Position numbers and translations under genes: made by a program
Assembly: GCA_000004695.1 (NCBI GenBank)
Contig: CM000153.2
Location: forward strand, 1,056,001-1,120,000
DNA length: 64,000 nucleotides
From: Dictyostelium discoideum
Taxonomy: Eukaryota
Reading direction: 5' to 3'
Shown: piece by piece, positions 36,738-53,115 of the stretch
How positions within the stretch are numbered: position 1 is the stretch's first letter
Layout: each line of letters starts with the position of its first letter
Notes under the pieces: model-generated
The model's database searches: none
What the model was told of the DNA's origin: nothing
The model's input: the letters and a program-made list of their open reading frames with translations, nothing else

Positions 36738-38270
<1,533 letters not shown>

Positions 38271-38706
38271 CCATTTTTATATGTATAGATATATATATAT
38301 ATAAATACTCTTCAAACCTGTATAAATTTGTATATTCTTTATCTTTTTTTTTTCTTTTTTTTTTTCTGTTTATTCTTTTTTAAAAAAAAAAAAAAAAAAA
38401 AACAAATTATAATTAAAATAATTTAAATAAATTTCTTATTCAATTTTCCTAAATTAAAAACTATTTAATTTAAAAAAAGGTAACATTTATTAGAAGTTTC
38501 CAAAAAAAAAAAATTTTTATTTTGATTGTTGCTTGGTGTTTGGGCGATCAAAAAAAATATCTAAAAATAATTTTTTTGAATTTTTGTTTTTATTTTTTTT
38601 TTTTTTTTATTTTTTGATGGGGTTTTTTTGGATGTTTTATTTTTTTTTTTTACTTTTTTCCTCTTTTTTTGAAAATAATATCAAAAGTTATCAAAACAAC
38701 AAAAAA

Positions 38707-39472
38707 ATGAAAATTATAAAGTATTTTTATACTTTCATACTCTATTTTTTATTTTTATTTAATTGTTTGGCGTTTGTTAAAAGTGGTGACCTGGAATGTA
38801 AAAATAATTTATTATTAAAATATCAAGTATTTGCAAATACTTTGTGCGATTCAGCAGAAGTTAATACCACAACAATCACTTTTCGTGCAACTTGTATAAA
38901 TAATATTCTTTACACTTTGTAAATATCAACTTGAAGTAATAATAATAATAAAAATAATAATAATTAATAACTAATTTTAAAAATTAATTTAAAATAGCCA
39001 TATTACTCCAACTGCTAGCGCACCAAATGTTACATTGACTTATGATGATTTGAATTGCTTCACAGATCTTTCTGATATGTAATTATTTAAAATATATAAT
39101 TAATTATTTTTTTTTTTAAAATAAAAAAAAAAAAAAAAAAAAACATGGATTTTAATAGTGTACAATAATTAAAAAAAAAAAAAAAAAAAAAAAAGGGTTT
39201 TCACAAATGTTAGATTCAATGGAAATGCATTTGGACAGGAGAATCAACAACAGGTAGCAAAAAGACTTTATTTTATTAATTGTACATTTGAGTCTGGTGA
39301 AATTGGTGATTCCCTTTCAAAAAACACAACTCTAGTTTGGATTGAATTTAATGAGAATTCAAATTTAAAAAATATTTATTTTTTAAATATTAAACATTTA
39401 GAAACATTGTAATTATAATTTAATATTATTTCCTATGGCCTATAAGTTTCAATTTTAACTAACTTTTTGGTG

Positions 39473-39512
<40 letters not shown>

Positions 39513-42500
39513 AATAAATAAACTTTAATAGTATACTAACTAGAATAGGCGATTTGGCTAAAATTCCATATATTGATAATAATCTTCAAAATCCTTCATA
39601 TCATTTTAAAGAAATGTTTGTATAAATTAATATTATTATTATTAAAATTTTCTTTCCAAATATTAATTTCAGTTTGGAAAAAAAAAAAAAAAGAATATTA
39701 GTTACAGAACAATTAATGTCATTTAATGGTTTAAATTGTTCAAGAATGACTATTACACTTATAAATGCAACAGAACAACATAGTGGATTAGATTTTTTAA
39801 ATACCATTAATAGTATTGATGAATTGAATTTAGATTTTGGTGATAATTTAATTGCCTTTCCAGGTATAATAGGTTCAAACAATAATAAATTAAAAACTCT
39901 TTCAATTTCAGGTAAATTTAAAAAACCATCAATTATAGGATTAACTATTCAAGAAGGCCTTCAAGAGTTTTCAATTAATGGTGGTGGTGAATTATTTAAT
40001 ATTAATGGTGCTTTACCATTCTTAACTATTCCATCTTCATTAAAGTTATTTTATATTGCTGATATTGGTTTAACCACTTTTCCAACCTTTCCACTTAATA
40101 TTGAAACAATGTAAATATATATATATATATATAGTTTAATTTTTTTTTAATTTTTTTTTTAAATACTAATTTTAAAATTTTTTTTTATTAATTTATTATT
40201 ACTATTATTATTATTAAAAAAAACTATTAGATTAATTTATAAAAATAATTTTGGAGGCATTTTACCAGATTTGTCAAGTTATAAAAAATTATCACATGTT
40301 TCTTTAGCAGAGTGTGGTTTCACTGGTACAATTCCAGAAAGTTATTGTATGTTTACTGGTACTTTAAATAATAATTCACTTACTGGTTTTTGGCCCCAAT
40401 GCAAAATATGTTATTTTGATAATTTTGAAGAAAGTTTTGATGGTAATCCATCACTAGAGAAAGGAAATTGTGGTATGTATTATAAATTAAAAATAAAAAA
40501 TAAAATATATATGATTTTATATTAATATTAATATTAAAAAATTTAGAACCAGGATCAATTGTTCCAAATTTAGAATATTATAATGTTTCAAATGAAATAA
40601 CATTATATGGAGAGAATTTAGGCATTTTCGGTCCAGGTAATATTTATAATATAGGATTTAAAGTAATAAATAGACAATCATTATTTAAAGCAATTTGGAA
40701 TGAAACAGCCAATGGTATAATTCCAAATATTATTGAACTTAATTTTGGTGGTACTAATTTTAAATTAGCAACTAAATCTTTAAAACCAATAGTTCAATCT
40801 ATTACAAAGCTTGGTTCTAATTATGCTTTTAAAGGTGAAAATTTCTCTTATAATAAAGAACATTTTGAAGTTAAAATTGGTGGTGTACCATGTGAAATTA
40901 ATTATATTGCTTTTGAAATTATTAAATGTAGTTTCAAAACATCAATATTACCAAATAATGGTATAGATATCAAATCAACAATTCAAAATTTTAATATAGA
41001 TCAAATAATTTCATTCACTGTAAATACAATTGATAATAAAACAACAGATATTTTAACATGTGCATCTGAATGTCTTAATGGTGGTTTTTGTAGTTCAACA
41101 AGTGGTAATTGTATTTGTGGTGAAATATATAAAGGATCTGATTGTGCTATTTTAAAGACATGCCAAAACAATTGTATAGATTCAAATCATGGATATTGTA
41201 ATTATACAAGTGAAAGTTGTGTTTGCGTTAATGGTTGGTCTGGTAATGATTGCTCAACTATGGTTTGTACTTCTGATTGTAGTGAACCTTTAGGTAATGG
41301 AAAATGTGATACAACCACTGGAATTTGTAAATGTTCTCAACAATATACCAGTGATGATTGTAGTTTACCAAATCAATATATTTCATCAGTATCATCAGTA
41401 CCAACAAGCGGTGGTGTTGTAAATATCTGGGGTTGGTTTGGTACAATACATTCAGGATTATCAATTATGATTGATCAACAAGTTTGTCAACATGATGTTA
41501 ATTCAATTACTAGTAGTTTTATAAATTGTACAGTTGGTGCTGGTAGTGGTACACAATCAATTACTCTCACTCAAAATGGTATTACATATACTGGTAATAA
41601 TATGTTCCATTATACTGAATTAACATATAGTTGTCCAAAAGATTGTTCAAATAATGGTAAATGTAATACAAATACAGGTCAATGTAAATGTAATAGTGGA
41701 TGGGGTGGTTATGATTGTAATTCAAAAAAAACAACTCAACCATCAACATCATCATCATCATCAACAACAACTACAGCATCCTCTTCAACAACTGGTTCTA
41801 CTGAGACACCAACACCAACTTCAACACCAGTAGTTGAAATTCCAAAATCAAATACTACAATCAATGAAGATTTAGGTTCAGCAGTTATCAATAATCAACA
41901 GACAACATATGAAATTTCAATTTTATCATTAATTGAAACTGATTTTTCAAATAATATTGTAAATACATTTAATTTATCAAAGAAATGGACAGCTTCAGTA
42001 AGCACAGATAATATCTATAAATTTACTCAAACAATTCAAGAATCATGTAATATCACATACACTATTGAAGAGATTAAAACAGAAAGAGATTATCAATGGG
42101 CAGGTTTAGATTTAACATTGGATAAAGATTCAATCAAAATTTCAGTCTCAATTAAAAATTACACTTTTAATAGTGTTTTAAATAATCTTCAATTAAGATT
42201 TGAATCATTAGTAGGTGATAATAATAAAAATACTCAAGATAATAATGAATGTAATAATAAAGATACTCAAGTTGATACAAGTGAAATCGATAAAAATCAA
42301 TTATTAAATTATGTAACAATATCAAGAAATCAAAAAGTTTTATATGGTCGTTTCATTAATAGAGTTATTAGTGATTCAAGACAAACTTTTATAACAACCT
42401 CTGTAATTCCAAATAATAATAATAATAAACAATCAGTGATCATTGGATTAAATCTTCCACATTGCACGCATGAATGTTTAATTGATCCTGATTTCTCTGT

Positions 42501-42702
42501 TTTGGTTTCACCATCATATCAAGAATGTTCTAGTGATTTAAATAATGGTCGTGCCAGTTGGGTATTACCTGTTGCTATCGTTGTACCTTGTGTTGCTGTT
42601 GCTGCCATTATTATTATTAGTGCGGTATTGTATAAAAAGAATCGTTTATCTTTTTTGATTGTCAAAAATAAGTTAAATAATATAAAACTTTCCAAAAAAT
42701 AA
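38707..42702 (+). CDS. Paralog A of a tandem family of type I membrane glycoproteins (signal peptide, LRR-like segments, IPT/TIG domains, four tenascin-type EGF modules, Ser/Thr stalk, TM helix, short cytoplasmic tail); 7 exons approx 38707-38918, 38998-39078, 39196-39408, 39532-39615, 39673-40110, 40231-40472, 40547-42702
   Basis: Signal peptide MKIIKYFYTFILYFLFLFNCLAFVKS. LRR-like exons such as ...LNIETM / ...LSHVSLAECGFTGTIPESYC...NSLTGFWPQCKICYF match the plant-LRR-like LxxNxLxGxIP pattern. The 2.16-kb last exon holds IPT-like KGENFSYNKEHFEVKIGGVPCEINYIAFEIIKC. EGF modules are CASECLNGGFCSSTSGNCICGEIYKGSDC, CQNNCIDSNHGYCNYTSESCVCVNGWSGNDCS, CTSDCSEPLGNGKCDTTTGICKCSQQYTSDDCS, CPKDCSNNGKCNTNTGQCKCNSGWGGYDCN. 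Then a Ser/Thr stalk and TM helix WVLPVAIVVPCVAVAAIIIISAVLY plus tail KKNRLSFLIVKNKLNNIKLSKK. Phase-consistent GT...AG introns were derived by eye. Confidence 0.7.
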
Positions 42703-43058
42703 AAAAAGTAAAATTGTGAATAGAAAAAAAAAAAAAATTAAAAAAAAATTAAAAATAAAAATAAAGAAAAAAAATAGAAAAAAAGAAAATTTAATTTAAT
42801 TTAAATTAATAAACATATCCGAATACCATTTGTAACACTCACATTTGATTGTGTTGATCAAAAAAAAAAATTTTTAATCAAACCTTGAATTGTGAAAGGT
42901 CAGAAAATCTTAAATTACTTGAAATTGAGAAAATAAAAAAAAAGGTTGGATATCCTAAATGAGAGTCCAAGGTGGTTAAAAAAAAAAAAAAAATAAAAAA
43001 TAAAAATTAAAAATTTTCAAAAGAAATCGTGGTCACAAATAACAATCAAAAAAATAAA

Positions 43059-46000
43059 ATGAAATCAAATTTTTTATTTAATTTCTTTTTACTATTATTT
43101 TTTATTAATATCCTAAAATTTGGTATTGTAAAATCAAGTAATTTGATATGTTTAAATAGTATTTCAACAAAATTGGCAGGAAGCACAATTTCAGATTATT
43201 GCACTAATGAATTAACAGTAAATTTATATTCATTTTCATATAGCACAGTATGTAATGGAACAACTCTAACTCAACTGTATGTAGAGTTCATTCTTTTTTT
43301 TTTAATTTTCTAAAAAAATTAATACTAATTATTTTTAACTTCTTTTTTATAGAACTCTTAGTACCATTTTATACAATAATAAAAGTTTGTCATATACTGA
43401 ATTAAATTGTTTTGAAACAACATTAGAATCACTGTAAAATACCAAAATTATATTATATTATTACAATTTTTTTTATTTTTTTTATTATTATTATTATTTT
43501 TTATATTAATATGATGATGATTTTTTTTTTTTTTTTTTTAATTTTTAGAATTTTAAATAGTATTTTAATACATGAAGATTCCTTTGGAGTTGAAAACCAA
43601 CCAGCAATTGCTGATACAATTACTTTAAGTAATGTTACATTCATAGGTAATTAATTTATAATAATAATTTTTTAATTTTTTTAATATTTCTCGAAAATAA
43701 TATTAATTCATAATTAAATAGATGGAAGATTTACATCTCTTGGAAATTCTTTACCATTTAATACAAGCACTTTAAACATTTTTAATCTTGGAACATCAAA
43801 TTTACTCTTTATTGATTTTTTAGCTATTAAAAACCTAAAAACATAGTTTGTATAATTAGTGATATTAAAATTAAATATTATTTTTTTTTTTTATTAATTT
43901 TTTTTTTTTTTTTTTTTAAAAATTTGAAAAAAGCTATACAATTAATTTTAATTCTTTAGAACCTTATCCAACATATACCAATAGTTTAACTAGCCCAGAC
44001 TTTAAAATGGAAAAAATGTAGGTACTTTTATTATAAATTAAAAAAAAAAAAAAAAATTCTAATATTATATATAAACAGAACAATGGCTTTATCAAACATT
44101 CCTTCTTTTTTAAATGTTGTAGTTGACTATCTAGAATTGCTATTAGTTGGAACATCATTTTCTTCATCACAATTATCAAATTTAGGAACAATGACTCATG
44201 TTTCAGCTTTGGCTTTTAAATCGAATTCTGCTATTGAATATCCAACAGAGTTAGGTTCAGCAAATAACAGCATTACTACTTTAACGTTGACAACACCACT
44301 TCTTGCATATGCTAATTATGCTCTCCCTCCAAACCTTGCCCTGCTTTATGTTAGTGCAGGTTCAAATTTCAATTTTAACAAAAGGCTCCCATTCAGTGTA
44401 TTCCCGTCTTCTTTAAAATCTATATTTATTGGAGCTATTGGTATTGATTCTTTTAGTCAGGTCCTTCCTCAAACAATTGAAGCTATGTAAGTATTATTTT
44501 TATATATATTATTATTTTTACCATTATTAGAATAAAAAATATTAATTGTAGAAAATTTCAATCAATTCAAATAGAACAATTTCAAATAATCCTATGGGAC
44601 CAAGAAATTTACCAAGTTTTGAGCATTACACAAACTAACTCAACTTACCCTAACAGGATGTGGATTTACTGGAACAATTCCAGAATCATATTGTTTATTT
44701 GATTGTGTGTTAAGTTCAAATAATTTAAATGGTACATTACCTCAATGTAAGATTTGTCATGCTGAAGAAAATTATGGTAAATTTGAAAGTAATCCAAATT
44801 TAACTCAAGGAATATGTTGTAAGTATAGTAATTTAAAAATTAAAAACTAAATGGTAATTCTAATTATAAACTTTATTAGATCCAGGATCAATCGTTCCAA
44901 ATTTAGATTATAATAATATTACCAAGAGTTTAGAATTATATGGAACCAATTTAGGTTTACATGGTCCATTAATAAAAGAAACAAATCAAACATTTGCAGT
45001 TAATCTTCCACAATCTTCATTCAAATTAAATTGGAATGAAGTTGTTTATGGTACAATTCCTAATACAATTGATATAAAAATTTCAACAAAATACTATACA
45101 TTGGCAACTAAATATTTAAAACCAACAATTTTTGAAATTACAAGGTCTGGTAATACCTTTACATTCAAAGGAAAAAACTTTTCTTACAATATCAGTGTTA
45201 TTGAAATTAAAATTTTAGATATTGAATGTCCAATAAGTTATAGTGAATTTACTATTATTAATTGTAAATCTAATAAAACTCAATTGGGTAATTCAATCCA
45301 AGGAACAATTCAAAATAAAATGTCTACTGAAATTATTCCATTTTATCTAAATACAAATGATAATTCAACATCAATACAATGTAGTACTGATTGTAATGAA
45401 CCTTTAGGTAATGGAAAATGTAACATCGCAAATGGAATTTGTAAATGTATCAATGAATTTATTGGTAATGATTGCTCTATACCAAATCAATACATTTCAT
45501 CAGTATCATCAGTATCAACAAGTGGTGGTGTTGTAAATATCTGGGGTTGGTTTGGTACATTACATTCAGGATTATCAATTATGATTGGTCAACAAGTTTG
45601 TCAACATGATATTAATTCAATTACTAGTAGTTTTATAAATTGTACAGTTGGTGCTGGTAGTGGTACACAATCAATTACTCTCACTCAAAATGGTATTACA
45701 TATACTGGTATTAATATGTTCCATTATACTGAATTAACATATAGATGTCCAAAAGATTGTTCAAATAATGGTAAATGTAATACAAATACAGGTCAATGTA
45801 AATGTAATAGTGGATGGGGTGGTTATGATTGTAATTCAAAATCATCAACTGATGGTGGAACTACAACAACAATATCATCATCATCATCAACCACAGGTAC
45901 AACTCAAACACCAACACCAACAAAGGAAATTCCAAAATCAAATACAACCATTAATGGAACTGATGGTTTAACTGTTTTGAATAATCAACAAACAACATAT

Positions 46001-46810
46001 GAAATTTCAATTGTATCATTAATTGAAACTGATTTTTCAAATAATATTGTGAATACATATAACTTATCAAAGAAATGGACACCTGTAAACCATACCAATA
46101 TAAATATCTATAAATTTACTCAAACAATTCAAGAATCATGTATTATCACATACACTATTGAAGAAGTTAAAACAGCAAGAGAATATCGATGGGCAGGTTT
46201 AGATTTAACATTGGATAAAGATTCAATCAAAATTTCAGTCTCAATTAAAAATTACACTTTTAATAGTGTTTTAAATAATCTTCAATTAAGATTTGAATCA
46301 TTAGTAGGTGATAATAATAGAAATACTCAAGATAATAATGAATGTAATAATAGAGATACTCAAGTTGATACAAGTGAAATCGATAAGAATCAATTACTAA
46401 ACTATTTAACAATATCAAGAAATCAAAAAGTTTTATATGGTCGTTTCATTAATAGAGTTATTAGTGATTCAAGACAAACTTTTATAACAACCTCTGTAAT
46501 TCCAAATAATAATAATAATAATAAACAATCAGTGATCATTGGATTAAACCTCCCACATTGTAAAAATGAATGTTTAATTGATCCTGATTTCTCTGTTTTG
46601 GTTTCATCATCTTATCAAGAATGTTCAAGTGATTTAAATAATGGTGGTCGTGCCAGTTGGGTATTACCTGTTGCTATCGTTGTACCTTGTGTTGCTGTAG
46701 TTTTAATAGCAATTATTGTTGCAATTTTATACAGAAAGAATCGTTTGGCATTTTTAATTGCAAAAAGTAAAATTAATGATATTAGATTATCAAAGAAAGA
46801 ATTAAAATAA
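43059..46810 (+). pseudogene. Paralog B of the same family; 3' terminal exon (about 44881-46810) intact and nearly identical to paralog C, but 5' exons carry an in-frame TAG, a splice-phase inconsistency and a 1-nt frameshift. Likely pseudogene, or sequencing errors
   Basis: Exons approx 43059-43276 (MKSNFLFNFFLLLFFINILKFGIVKS...), 43353-43433, 43549-43646, 43721-43848, 43960-44017, ~44077-44487, ~44555-44828, 44881-46810. Exon 4 reads ...FIDFLAIKNLKT-TAG (TAG at about 43843-45) where paralog C has ...FVDFYSIKYLTYL. Exons 4 and 5 cannot be joined in frame. In exon 7 the homologous frame runs NLPSFEHYTN-TAA, then resumes in another frame as KLTQLTLTGCGFTGTIPESYC; one A is missing from an A-run near 44630. 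The terminal exon encodes IPT, two EGF modules, stalk, TM (WVLPVAIVVPCVAVVLIAIIVAILY) and tail RKNRLAFLIAKSKINDIRLSKKELK. Confidence 0.45.
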
Positions 46811-46968
46811 TTAAATGTGACATATACGCTTTTTGAGTGCCATTCGAATAAAAAAATAAATTCGAATAAAAAAATAAATTTGAAAAAAAAAAAATCATTT
46901 TCTAAAAACACTTCGCTAAAAATAAAAAACATGCGGTTTTTCTTGAAATATAAATATCTAGGTAAACA

Positions 46969-47004
<36 letters not shown>

Positions 47005-47071
47005 TTTTTTTTTTTTTTTATCACTGCAAAGAAAAATAAAAATAAAAAAATATTAAGATAATTAAAATAAA

Positions 47072-48871
47072 ATGAAATCAATTTTTTATTATTTTTATTT
47101 ATTGATTTTTATTGTCTCACTCAAGTTAACCATTGTTAAGTCAACAGATGAAATATGCTTAAATAATTTATTAATTAGTTTCTTTGGAGAAAAAACTAAT
47201 CAGTATTGCACAGGTGGCGATATAATAAATTCTACTGGGAATTTATCTTCTATAAGTGTTGTTTGTAATGCACAATATAATATTGTGGAATTGTAGGTTA
47301 ATTATAATATTAAAAAAAAAAAAAAAAAATAATAATAATAACGATTAAAATAATTTAGAAAACTTTTTAATAATATTTATTTTTGTATAGATATATTGAA
47401 AATAATGGTGTACTTGTTACAAAAAGTTTAAATTACAATGATTTTAATTGTTTTTCAGGTTCTCTTAATACTTTGTAAGAAAATGAATTAAATATATTTA
47501 TTTTTTATTATTATAAAATGATTTAATGATTAACCTTTTATTATTATCATTTAATTTAGAAAAATCAATGGTTTACCTATATCAGCTGATGCATTTGGAA
47601 CTGATATGCAAACAAAGGTTGCACAACGTATAGAATTAACCGATTGCACATTCCCAGGTTGGTATTTATAATTAGTATTATTAATTCAAATCACCCACAA
47701 AATTATTAATTAATATTTAAATTTTAAAACTAGATGGTAGATTTTCCTCAGTTGGAAATGCTTTAGCAAATACTACTAAATATATTTCAATTAAAATCAA
47801 TGATAATTCCAATTTAAATTTTGTAGATTTCTATTCAATCAAATACCTTACTTATTTGTATGTTTTGATATTATTATAATACTTTTATTATTTTATAATG
47901 ATGCTAACTCTAATTAAAAAAAAAAACAAAAAAATAGTCATGTAACTCTTAATAATTCAAATGTTGAGCCTCCAACCTTTTCTAATACTCTTCAAACTAG
48001 TGATAAGCCTTCTCTTTCAGAAGTGTATGTTTTTTTTAAAAAAAAAAGAAAAAAAAAAAAAACTATAAATAATAATAAAATACTAATATTAAATTTAATA
48101 GGAATTTACCTTTAAAAAATATTCCATCATTTACGTATCTTTTGATAAACTCACTCTCAATAAGTTTGGTTGGAAATTCATTCACTGAAGCCGAATTATT
48201 AAATTTAGGTACATTAAATGTTACTTATTTAGCATTAAAAAAAGAAAACCTTGCAATGGATTATCCAAATTCAATTTCAAGTATTACCAAAGTTATTGGT
48301 CTAACTGTATATGGTTCTTTTACAGCAAGAGCCAGTGGTTATTCTCTCCCACCTAATTTAAATAATCTAGTACTTGCACCAGATGTAAGTTTCAATTTTA
48401 ATGGTAAATTTCCATTCCTTGGTACATTACCACTCAAATTGACCTCTATTTCTATTGGTTCAATAGGTCTTACAACATTTCCTGATAATTTTCCTCCAAA
48501 TATTGAAAAACTGTAATTATTATTATTATTATTTTTATTATTATTTAATATTATTATTTATTTATTTTTACTATTTTGAATAATTTGATTTTTAATACTT
48601 TAAAATAGATCTTTAAATTATAACAAAATGGATCCACAAACAAATTTACCAGATCTTTCATCTTTTTCTAAATTAAAAGAAGTTTTATTAATATCAAATC
48701 AATTCACAGGTCCAATACCCAATTCTTATTGTTTATTCAAGGTCTCATTAAATTCAAATAATTTAACTGGTGATTGGCCTCAATGTTTAATTTGTTTCCC
48801 ATATTATAATGTAAATAATTTGAACGGCAATCCATTTTTAAATAGGGGAACTTGCAGTATGTTTTATTATT

Positions 48872-48936
<65 letters not shown>

Positions 48937-50881
48937 CTAATTACTTTTCAAACTTTTAGATCCAGGATCAGGGGTTCCAAATTTAGAATATGAAAGTAGT
49001 TCAAAATATTTTGAACTTTATGGAGAAAACCTTGGTTTGGCTCCCCCAACCATTGAAAATCAAGCATTTAAAGATATAATCATACCAAATTCAAGATTTG
49101 GATATAGTTGGAATGAAGGGCTATTAGGACCAGTTCCAGATATAGTAAAAGTAAATATCTCTTCAAAAATCTATTTGATGGCTACCAAATATTTAACACC
49201 TCAAATAAGTACCATTACAAAAGCTGGTAATGATTTCACTTTTAGAGGTATTAATTTTTCTTATAACAAAAACCAATTTACTATAAAAATTGCTGGTGTT
49301 GATTGTGTAATAAGTTATATTGAATATGGTATTATAAATTGTAGTAATATCGATTCCGTTCCGTTAGGTCATTATGTTCCAGGTACATTGGAAAGTCAAA
49401 AATCAACAGAAATCATTACATTCTACATTAATACAATTGATAATAAAACATCTGACATTATTAAATGTAATTCTGATTGTAATGAACCTTTAGGTAATGG
49501 AAAATGTAATACTACCAATGGAATTTGTGAATGCACTCAACAATATACCAGTGATGATTGTAGTTTACCAAATCAATTCATTACATCAGTATCATCAGTA
49601 CCAACAAACGGTGGTGTTGTTGATATCTGGGGTTGGTTTGGTACAATACATTCAGGTTTATCAATTATGATTGGTCAACAAGTTTGTCAACATGATGTTA
49701 ATTCAATTACTAGTAGTTTTATAAATTGTACAGTTGGTGCTGGTAGTGGTACACAATCAATTACTCTCACTCAAAATGGTATTACATATACTGGTAATAA
49801 TATGTTCCATTATACTGAATTAACATATAGTTGTCCAAAAGATTGTTCAAATAATGGTAAATGTAATACAAATACAGGTCAATGTAAATGTAATAGTGGA
49901 TGGGGTGGTTATGATTGTAATTCAAAATCATCAACTGGTGGCGAAACTACATCAACATCATCAACCACAGGTACAACTACACCAACCTCATCACCAGTAA
50001 TTGAAATTCCAAAAACAAATACAACCATTAATGGAACTGATGGTTCAACTGTTTTGAATAATCAACAAACAACATATGAAATTTCAATTTTATCATTAAT
50101 TGAAACTGATTTTTCAAATAATATTGTGAATACATATAACTTGTCAAAGAAATGGGATCCTGTAAATATTACATCAAATAATATCTATAAATTTACCCAA
50201 ACAATTCAAGAATCATGTATTATCACATACACTATTGAAGAAGTTAAAACAGCAAGAGAATATCGATGGGCAGGTTTAGATTTAACATTGGATAAAGATT
50301 CAATCAAAATTTCAGTCTCAATTAAAAATTACACTTTTAATAGTGTTTTAAATAATCTTCAATTAAGATTTGAATCATTAGTAGGTGATAATAATAGAAA
50401 TACTCAAGATAATAATGAATGTAATAATAGAGATACTCAAGTTGATACAAGTGAAATCGATAAAAATCAATTATTAAATTATGTAACAATATCAAGAAAT
50501 CAAAAAGTTTTATATGGTCGTTTCATTAATAGAGTTATTAGTGACTCAAGACAAACTTTTATAACAACCTCTGTAATTCCAAATAATAATAATAATAATA
50601 AACAATCAGTGGTCATTGGATTAAATCTTCCACATTGTACACATGAATGTTTAATTGATCCTGATTTCTCTGTTTTGGTTTCATCATCTTATCAAGAATG
50701 TTCAAGTGATTTAAATAATGGTGGTCGTGCCAGTTGGGTATTACCTGTTGCTATCGTTGTACCTTGTGTTGCTGTTGTTTTAATCATTATCATTGGTTTT
50801 ATTTTATTTAAAAAGAATCGTTTGGCATTTTTAGTCGCCAAAAATAAGATGAAAGGTCTCAAATTAAAAGGATTATCATAA
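47072..50881 (+). CDS. Paralog C of the same family, apparently intact (about 1064 aa); 8 exons approx 47072-47292, 47391-47474, 47560-47657, 47724-47847, 47938-48024, 48102-48512, 48609-48856, 48960-50881
   Basis: All junctions are phase-consistent: MKSIFYYFYLLIFIVSLKLTIVKS...NIVEL / YIENNGVLVTKSLNYNDFNCFSGSLNTL / KINGLPISADAFGTDMQTKVAQRIELTDCTFPG / DGRFSSVGNALANTTKYISIKINDNSNLNFVDFYSIKYLTYL / FHVTLNNSNVEPPTFSNTLQTSDKPSLSEV / VNLPLKNIPSFTYLLINSLSISLVGNSFTEAELLNLG...NIEKL / SLNYNKMDPQTNLPDLSSFSKLKEVLLISNQFTGPIPNSYC...NRGTC / NPGSGVPNLEYESS... Then IPT (ATKYLTPQISTITKAGNDFTFRGINFSYNKNQFTIKIAGVDCVISYIEYGIINC), EGF (CNSDCNEPLGNGKCNTTNGICECTQQYTSDDCS), second IPT, EGF (CPKDCSNNGKCNTNTGQCKCNSGWGGYDCN), stalk, TM WVLPVAIVVPCVAVVLIIIIGFILF, tail KKNRLAFLVAKNKMKGLKLKGLS. 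Confidence 0.75.
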
Positions 50882-51058
50882 TAACCAAAATGTGTTTGTC
50901 TATTTAATAAAATTTCACAATGTATTGTATTAAATCTTAAATAAACGAAAAATTTAAAAAAACACCTGAAAAAATTATTACCAATTTTATTTAACCTCTT
51001 TATTAAGTGCTGATCACACCAGAATTAATTTTGTTTTTAAATTATCTCTGGGCTTAAG

Positions 51059-51098
<40 letters not shown>

Positions 51099-51189
51099 TA
51101 ATACCTTTAAAAAATATTTAAATTTATTTTAATACAAATAAATAATAAAAAAAAAAAATTTTAATCAAAAAAAAATAAAATAAATAATA

Positions 51190-51258
51190 TAAGTAAAATA
51201 AAACAAAATAAAACAAAATAAAATAAAATAAAATAAAATAAAATAAAATAAAATATTT
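51190..51258. repeat. (AAAAT)n/(AAAAC)n pentanucleotide repeat, intergenic
   Basis: aaaacaaaataaaacaaaataaaataaaataaaataaaataaaataaaat read directly. Confidence 0.85.
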
Positions 51259-51531
51259 ATATAAATAATTTAAAATACTAGCCTAATTATTAAAAAAAAA
51301 AAAAAAAATTGGTTGCTAAAAGTAAAATCAATGTCTCAAACTAAAAGATTAAAAAAAAAAACACCTAAAATTACAATTTTAAATTTGAAAGATATTTATA
51401 AATAGCTATTTCAGTTTTTTATGCGAAAGTAATTAAAAAAAAAAAACAAAAAATAAAAAATAAAAAATAAAAAAAAAATAAATTTTTGGGAAAAAAAAAA
51501 AAAAAAAAAAAAAAAACGGAGCCGAGGGGGG

Positions 51532-51564
<33 letters not shown>

Positions 51565-51654
51565 ACATCAAATATTGTAAATAGTAAATAAAGGTAATAA
51601 CAACAATAATAATAATAAACAGTTTAATAAATAAGAAAATAATAAAGATATAAA

Positions 51655-53115
<1,461 letters not shown>

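Follow-up and report, generated by a model that had tools for sequence, protein, structure and literature searches.

Introduction

comC is a developmentally essential gene that has been found only in group 4 dictyostelids and encodes a protein with epidermal growth factor (EGF) domains, a signal peptide and a transmembrane helix (PMC4931340, Table 3). The phenotype of its mutant is described as "aberrant aggregation" (PMC2873529, Table 1). We investigated a 64-kb window of the Dictyostelium discoideum AX4 genome (64,000 nucleotides of contig CM000153.2; all positions given here are those of the window), in which self-comparison identified three tandem ComC-family paralogues, here termed A, B and C, all on the + strand. 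The gene order is cprC (cysteine proteinase 3), A, B, C and a RrnaAD-type methyltransferase gene. The middle paralogue, B, is very probably a normal eight-exon gene of this family that carries, in AX4, a very young, strain-specific null allele caused by the loss of a single C, and it lies in an array whose 3′ halves have been homogenised in patches by gene conversion.

A strain-specific null allele and partial concerted evolution within a tandem array are both known kinds of phenomenon, and B can be compared with each of them as well as with ComC. Like the ComC family, B has a full-length supersandwich domain, an EGF-like repeat and, by eye, a signal-like N terminus and one C-terminal hydrophobic helix, but none of A, B and C is comC itself, their annotation being that of "hypothetical proteins". 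Like the loss-of-function alleles, or young unitary pseudogenes, of laboratory strains, B carries a single disabling indel without secondary decay, while an intact allele segregates on the identical haplotype and the orthologues, under purifying selection, are intact. As in concerted evolution by conversion of only part of tandem duplicates, the 3′ 1.4 kb clusters by species, the 5′ half clusters by orthologue and the tracts of identity are mosaic.

Exon structure of B and its single deletion

GT-AG gene models were built for A, B and C. With a GC content of 13-31%, the window is extremely rich in AT, and its introns are short and AT-rich, measuring 57-123 nt in the three models. The models of A and C were residue-for-residue identical to the official AX4 proteins, which validates the splice-site choice. 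B comprises eight exons on the + strand. Exon 1 (43059-43276, 218 nt) starts with the ATG and, as judged by eye, a signal peptide, ends in phase 2, matches the annotated gene DDB_G0283785 and is of equal size in the orthologues. Exons 2 (43353-43433), 3 (43549-43646) and 4 (43722-43845) measure 81, 98 and 124 nt in all three genomes compared, and exon 4 ends in ...AAA ACA TA, in phase 2. Exon 5 (43934-44017, 84 nt) is of the same size as in A and the orthologues, and exon 6 (44079-44486, 408 nt) has the size found in the model, in DDB_G0283785 and in the orthologues. Exon 7 (44575-44818) contains a frameshift, and exon 8 (44880-46810), which encodes the EGF-like domain, the ComC supersandwich domain, the putative transmembrane helix and the stop, is open and undamaged. 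Exact spliced protein mapping gave sizes of 218/81/98/124/84/408/245 nt for the orthologous exons 1-7 in D. citrinum and in an assembly labelled D. discoideum (GCA_054859385.1, hereafter L001). The AX4 sizes deviate from these in exon 7 alone, which has 244 nt versus 245 nt in the orthologues.

A preliminary description of this locus, made from the sequence only, had counted three defects in the 5′ half of B: an in-frame TAG, a clash of splice phases and a 1-nt deletion. Only the last of these proved to be a lesion; the TAG and the clash of phases result from misassigned splice sites. Near the end of exon 4, two GTs lie 4 nt apart in ACATAGTTTGTATAA, at 43846 and 43850, so that the GT previously taken for the only available donor has an alternative upstream of it. 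This upstream donor, GTTTGTATAA at 43846-43847, overlaps the TAG as TA/GT and leaves phase 2, like the homologous junction of A and C. The intron 4 donor of A, in the model that equals the official protein, consists of the identical ten bases. The TAG is indeed present in the exon 4 frame, at 43844-43846, but its TA closes exon 4 and its G opens intron 4 (43846-43933; 88 nt, GC 7%, GTTTGT...AAG). Since AACATA followed by GTTTGTATAA is identical in the intact gene of L001, the TAG occurs there too and is harmless. Exon 5 starts 26 nt upstream of the start at about 43960 proposed before, and it joins exon 4 as TA plus C, a Tyr codon (...IKNLKT-Y-YTINFNSLEPYPTYTNSL), so that no phase clash arises. 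The Tyr junction is exactly that of DDB_G0283785 (P0029) and of an intact 1056-aa protein from another D. discoideum assembly (P0001), and D. citrinum (P0002) has the same junction with F replacing Y. Exon 7 had been placed at about 44555-44830; the acceptor CAAATAG directly before its actual start at 44575 joins it to exon 6 in phase. The junctions of B are the same as those of DDB_G0283785 in exons 1-6 and the same as those of the intact orthologue P0001 throughout.

When the conserved splice sites are used, B is open from the ATG for 358 codons and then runs into a TAA at 44636-44638. This bears out the frame break that had been noted in exon 7 near 44630, after which the homologous protein goes on in the -1 frame. 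The base that had been named as missing, one A of an A-run, was not the one lost. Alignment to orthologues and short-read contigs showed that AX4 lacks one C of a CC pair, between 44635 and 44636, reading ACAAAC-TAACT where the intact alleles, both in orthologues and in otherwise identical contigs, read ACAAACCTAACT (Asn-Leu-Thr). This 1-nt deletion is the one disabling change in B. It creates the premature TAA and cuts the product to 358 aa, and everything else in the gene is open and phase-consistent.

The deletion in other assemblies and read sets

The same deletion is carried by an independent chromosome-level assembly, GCA_054883475.1 (L002). Over 16.7 kb, all departures of this assembly from the window, in the form of altered lengths and a few substitutions, fall within long homopolymer tracts, apart from one single-nucleotide polymorphism (SNP) at 48972. 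The SNP, which is the sole non-homopolymer difference between the two in these 16.7 kb, is a G>T change in exon 8 of C that turns GGG (Gly) into GTG (Val).

The intact allele was found in short-read data. An intact 85-aa genomic open reading frame (ORF) beginning MGPRNLPSFEHYTNLTQLTLTGCG is present in five Logan short-read contigs from at least two runs, of which two (L003 from SRR28564542 and L004 from SRR26869268) were compared with the window base by base. Both contain the C and otherwise match the window at 100% identity across 1.2-1.4 kb, except that one of the two also differs by one A in a poly-A run. A look-up of the exon 6 ORF returned four Logan contigs, all of the intact type and apparently from the same set. 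The C is also present in L001. The simplest reading of these sequences is that the polymorphism is real, arose very recently and distinguishes stocks or strains with a common NC4/AX haplotype.

Alternatively, the deletion could be a sequencing or assembly error in the reference, AX4 having CC in reality and B being intact in the organism. Such an error would account for the C in the five short-read contigs, which stem from two or more runs and of which the two compared are otherwise identical to the AX4 haplotype, and for the failure to find a deletion-type short-read contig; moreover, one gene annotated as two models is the usual symptom of an error or a frameshift. We nevertheless consider it improbable. 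The second assembly has the deletion as well, and its own differences, in long homopolymer tracts and at one SNP, make it clearly no copy of the reference. The homopolymer error in a draft-quality region that had been suggested earlier is likewise unlikely, because the site is a CC dinucleotide, a 2-nt run and no error-prone homopolymer, and the same deletion recurs in an independent assembly of the same lineage. A further point against an error is that the reference is Sanger-based.

Several observations weigh against a real polymorphism that inactivates B in AX4. No Logan contig with the deleted allele was found by looking up the 47-aa ORF expected after the frameshift, although AX4 has often been sequenced; the Logan collection holds very few contigs of the B locus. 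The protein collection searched contained neither the truncated product nor the full-length protein as repaired nor a variant of 155 aa, and it therefore yields no transcript-derived support for B from any strain; a look-up of the AX4 model P0005 had no matches on record. GCA_054883475.1 would also cease to count as independent evidence if its sequence had been corrected with the AX4 reference as a guide. Finally, an origin of the mutation in the AX3/AX4 lineage is a guess, literature searches having found no mention of the two Sequence Read Archive (SRA) runs or of GCA_054883475.1 and nothing useful on the source of the new assemblies.

Orthologues of B are intact

The site of the deletion is intact in two further D. 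discoideum assemblies (P0001, P0012), in D. citrinum (P0002) and in D. dimigraforme (P0004). It is also intact in the models from two "D. cf. discoideum" assemblies (P0003, P0013), both of which models are partial and start at exon 6. Between B orthologues, the ratio of nonsynonymous to synonymous divergence (dN/dS, Nei-Gojobori) was 0.25-0.42 for each segment compared, before the frameshift as well as after it. The dN between AX4 and D. citrinum was 0.131, as was that between L001 and D. citrinum, and the AX4 branch shows no excess of amino-acid change. These sequence comparisons indicate that, in D. discoideum and in its sister species alike, B is conserved and purifying selection acts on it. 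The lack of any trace of relaxed constraint is as expected if the lesion is no older than a laboratory lineage.

Two other histories of the lesion were considered and rejected. A decaying, old pseudogene disagrees with the single lesion, with the dN/dS of 0.25-0.42 and with an AX4 branch that is not accelerated. Fixation of the lesion in the species disagrees with the intact allele on the identical haplotype in the Logan contigs and with the intact gene in other D. discoideum assemblies. B had been proposed to be a young pseudogene; it is disrupted and the disruption is young, but the word "pseudogene" overstates the case for a gene with intact orthologues, a dN/dS of 0.25-0.42 and an allele that differs by the C alone.

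L001, although labelled D. discoideum, shows ~4-5% nucleotide divergence from the window across 37034-52493, flanks included, and a dS of 0.10 in B. This divergence seems large for one species, and L001 may represent a cryptic lineage.

Annotation of B and possible bypass of the frameshift

The AX4 annotation divides B into two genes, DDB_G0283785, of 394 aa, which covers exons 1-6 and ends in a wrong-frame tail, and DDB_G0283853, of 628 aa, which covers exon 8 alone. The artificial end of DDB_G0283785 (44533-44702) uses an upstream acceptor, with an exon start at 44533, and is read in a non-homologous frame, with a tail beginning IKNINCRKFQSIQIEQ. The artificial start of DDB_G0283853 is apparently a 3-nt exon (ATG at 44851-44853) spliced to 44927, to judge from its first residues, MSLELYG.

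The annotation of GCA_054883475.1 contains one model that stops at the TAG (173 aa) and a second, P0015 (845 aa), that skips the frameshift by treating a 41-nt GT...AG stretch on the + strand at 44616-44656 (GTTTTG...AACAG, GC 37%) as an intron, giving ...NLPRCGFTG.... In the organism, the frameshift might be bypassed by splicing out this stretch, which would shorten the protein by 14 residues, or by a -1 ribosomal shift at ACA AAC TAA. The excision restores the frame exactly (CCA A/GT...AG/GA TGT to ...NLPRCGFTG...), but gene predictors use any GT...AG that rescues an ORF. The 41 nt and 37% GC contrast with the introns of B, which measure 61-115 nt and have a GC content of 7-15% (57-123 nt in these genes), the donor GTTTTG is weak, and the intact allele has conserved coding sequence at the same place (SFEHYTNLTQLTLT). 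That the stretch is a real intron is improbable. Ribosomal frameshifting, either -1 or +1, was rejected, as direct reading of the sequence found no slippery heptamer (X XXY YYZ) at the site. Taken together, a bypass by either route is very unlikely.

The 3′ halves of A, B and C are homogenised

The preliminary description had called the 3′ half of B near-identical to its neighbours and homogenised with them. The homogenisation was upheld, and B does resemble A and C there, but overall identity in the last 1.4 kb is 89-93%, reaching 100% in tracts only. The 3′ zone of B (45389-46807, + strand) is a mosaic of homogenisation with A (41275-42693) and C (49475-50866). Across the whole blastn matches, identity was 88% for B versus A and 84.6% for B versus C, and across the last 1.4 kb it was 89.4% and 93.0%, respectively, 100% identity being confined to embedded tracts of 96-266 nt. 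The longest is a 266-nt tract in which B (46121-46386, + strand) equals C (50198-50463), and a 253-nt tract in which A (41475-41727) equals C (49675-49927) is also among the longest.

Synonymous divergence separates the two halves of the genes. The first ~590 residues are about 25-40% identical between paralogues, with a saturated dS of 0.84-1.1, versus a dS of 0.13-0.23 in the last ~470 codons and a dS of 0.00 for all three paralogue pairs in two 60-codon windows. In a tree of the 3′ 1.4 kb, A, B and C cluster by species. Exon 6 groups by orthologue, B having 71% protein identity to D. citrinum B versus 29-40% to its own paralogues. By windowed distance, some blocks separate the AX4 paralogues by 0-0.8%; for the same blocks the distance is 2.5% between AX4 and L001 orthologues, 6.7-14% between AX4 and D. 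citrinum, and 0-1.7% among the paralogues of D. citrinum. Such blocks alternate with others in which the paralogues are 14-26% divergent. Purifying selection alone was rejected as the cause of the 3′ similarity, as synonymous sites are homogenised and the tree clusters paralogues by species. The distances and the tree show that gene conversion is ongoing, lineage-specific and limited to the 3′ halves, a form of partial concerted evolution. The sharp 5′ boundary could reflect either selection against conversion of the ectodomain or simply too little identity for conversion to start. A literature search found no description of partial conversion for the A, B and C genes, and a search on Dictyostelium gene conversion gave unrelated papers only.

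Between the frameshift and the start of the conversion zone downstream lie ~750 nt, and the sequence around the frameshift shares only ~65% identity with A. Because the deletion sits in the unconverted 5′ half, conversion should neither repair B nor export the lesion to A or C. In another possible history, B would be a pseudogene whose 5′ half has suffered several lesions and whose 3′ half survives only through conversion repair from A and C. The homogenised 3′ halves fit that history, and B is non-functional as written in the AX4 sequence, but the gene has one lesion only, the TAG and phase clash vanishing with the conserved splice sites. Orthologues are intact in at least six other genomes, the dN/dS of 0.25-0.42 applies to the 5′ half too with the AX4 branch not accelerated, and an allele exists whose sole difference from AX4 B is the C. 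We regard this history as extremely improbable.

Domains of B and features of the array

A protein search with the reconstructed B protein found 100% identity to DDB_G0283853, and homologues of B were found only in Dictyostelium species. Repaired B contains the ComC supersandwich domain PF22933 (ComC_SSD) at residues 773-993 (208.6 bits versus a cut-off of 24), the match covering profile positions 2-222 of 222. EGF_2 lies N-terminal to it, at residues 709-737 (25.5 bits versus a cut-off of 22.1), and EGF_TEN and EGF_Teneurin scored under their cut-offs in the same protein. No Pfam family matched the N-terminal ~590 residues of B at E<0.01. By eye only, MKSNFLFNFFLLLFFINILKFGIVKS at the N terminus is signal-peptide-like, and a single C-terminal hydrophobic helix, WVLPVAIVVPCVAVVLIAIIVAILY, is followed by RKNR. 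A literature search on DDB_G0283785, DDB_G0283853, DDB_G0283787 and DDB_G0283869 found no expression or mutant data.

The flanking paralogues are both intact and on the + strand. Paralogue A (DDB_G0283869, 38707-42702) has 7 exons and encodes 1141 aa, exactly as in XP_638860.1, and paralogue C (DDB_G0283787, 47072-50881) has 8 exons and encodes 1064 aa, exactly as in XP_638863.1. Both B and C have an intron between exons 3 and 4 that A lacks (window 39196-39408), and at about 41060-41260 A has ~70 additional residues of cysteine-rich EGF-like repeats (CASECLNGGFCSS...NDCSTMVC) that occur in neither B nor C. Intron 7 of C contains a run of ~57 A at 48878-48935, which is 17 nt shorter in GCA_054883475.1. 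Downstream of C, at 51490-51535 and 51835-51845, short G-rich/C-rich islands (CGGAGCCGAGGGGGG, CCCCCC) lie within long intergenic poly-A tracts; they are unusual for such AT-rich DNA and mark the points of greatest disagreement between the two assemblies. Scanning the window for tRNA genes gave none.

The order cprC-A-B-C-RrnaAD is shared with D. citrinum, which places the duplications before the split of the species. In D. firmibasis, three ComC-like copies lie upstream of RrnaAD, and its position next to RrnaAD makes P0006 the orthologue of C. The first two of these D. firmibasis genes are annotated as a single 2258-aa model (L006 1-6595), and the 3′ ends of copies two and three are just 5% apart. 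The annotation of L001 merges cprC and A into one 1413-aa model.

Discussion

A short series of events would account for the state of B. In the AX4 reference lineage, one C has been lost from the CC pair in exon 7, shifting the frame into an immediate TAA. The AX4 allele could therefore yield no more than a secreted N-terminal fragment of 358 residues, or no product at all should its mRNA be degraded. Patchy, repeated conversion meanwhile homogenises the last ~1.4 kb of A, B and C within each species, the 5′ halves evolving as separate orthologous lineages. The sequences show the structure of the gene, the deletion and its polymorphism, the constraint on the orthologues and the concerted evolution of the 3′ halves, whereas the loss of function, the fate of the mRNA and the laboratory lineage in which the mutation arose are inferences.

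The value of these findings is mainly practical, in correcting the AX4 annotation and in interpreting differences between strains. DDB_G0283785 and DDB_G0283853 are one locus, and their expression, restriction enzyme-mediated integration (REMI) and knockout data should be read jointly. The case also illustrates how an overlooked non-consensus GTTTGT donor makes an AT-rich Dictyostelium gene look "multiply disrupted".

More speculatively, the three genes might form a receptor set, each with its own slowly diverging, orthologue-specific ectodomain and all with a shared "constant" membrane-proximal and cytoplasmic module, actively kept alike by conversion, that feeds one signalling pathway. We regard this as a rather unlikely, tentative proposal. 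If it were true, the AX4 reference lineage would be a natural null for the middle receptor, and part of the differences in development or cell communication that set AX4-type strains apart from other laboratory strains derived from NC4 could stem from this null; AX4-based expression and mutant screens would all have treated DDB_G0283785 and DDB_G0283853 as separate genes.

Whatever the function of B, AX4-type strains may be B nulls where other stocks are not. The species-specific, patchy homogenisation of the 3′ halves alone shows cleanly, for a gene family with links to multicellular development, how concerted evolution can be partial.

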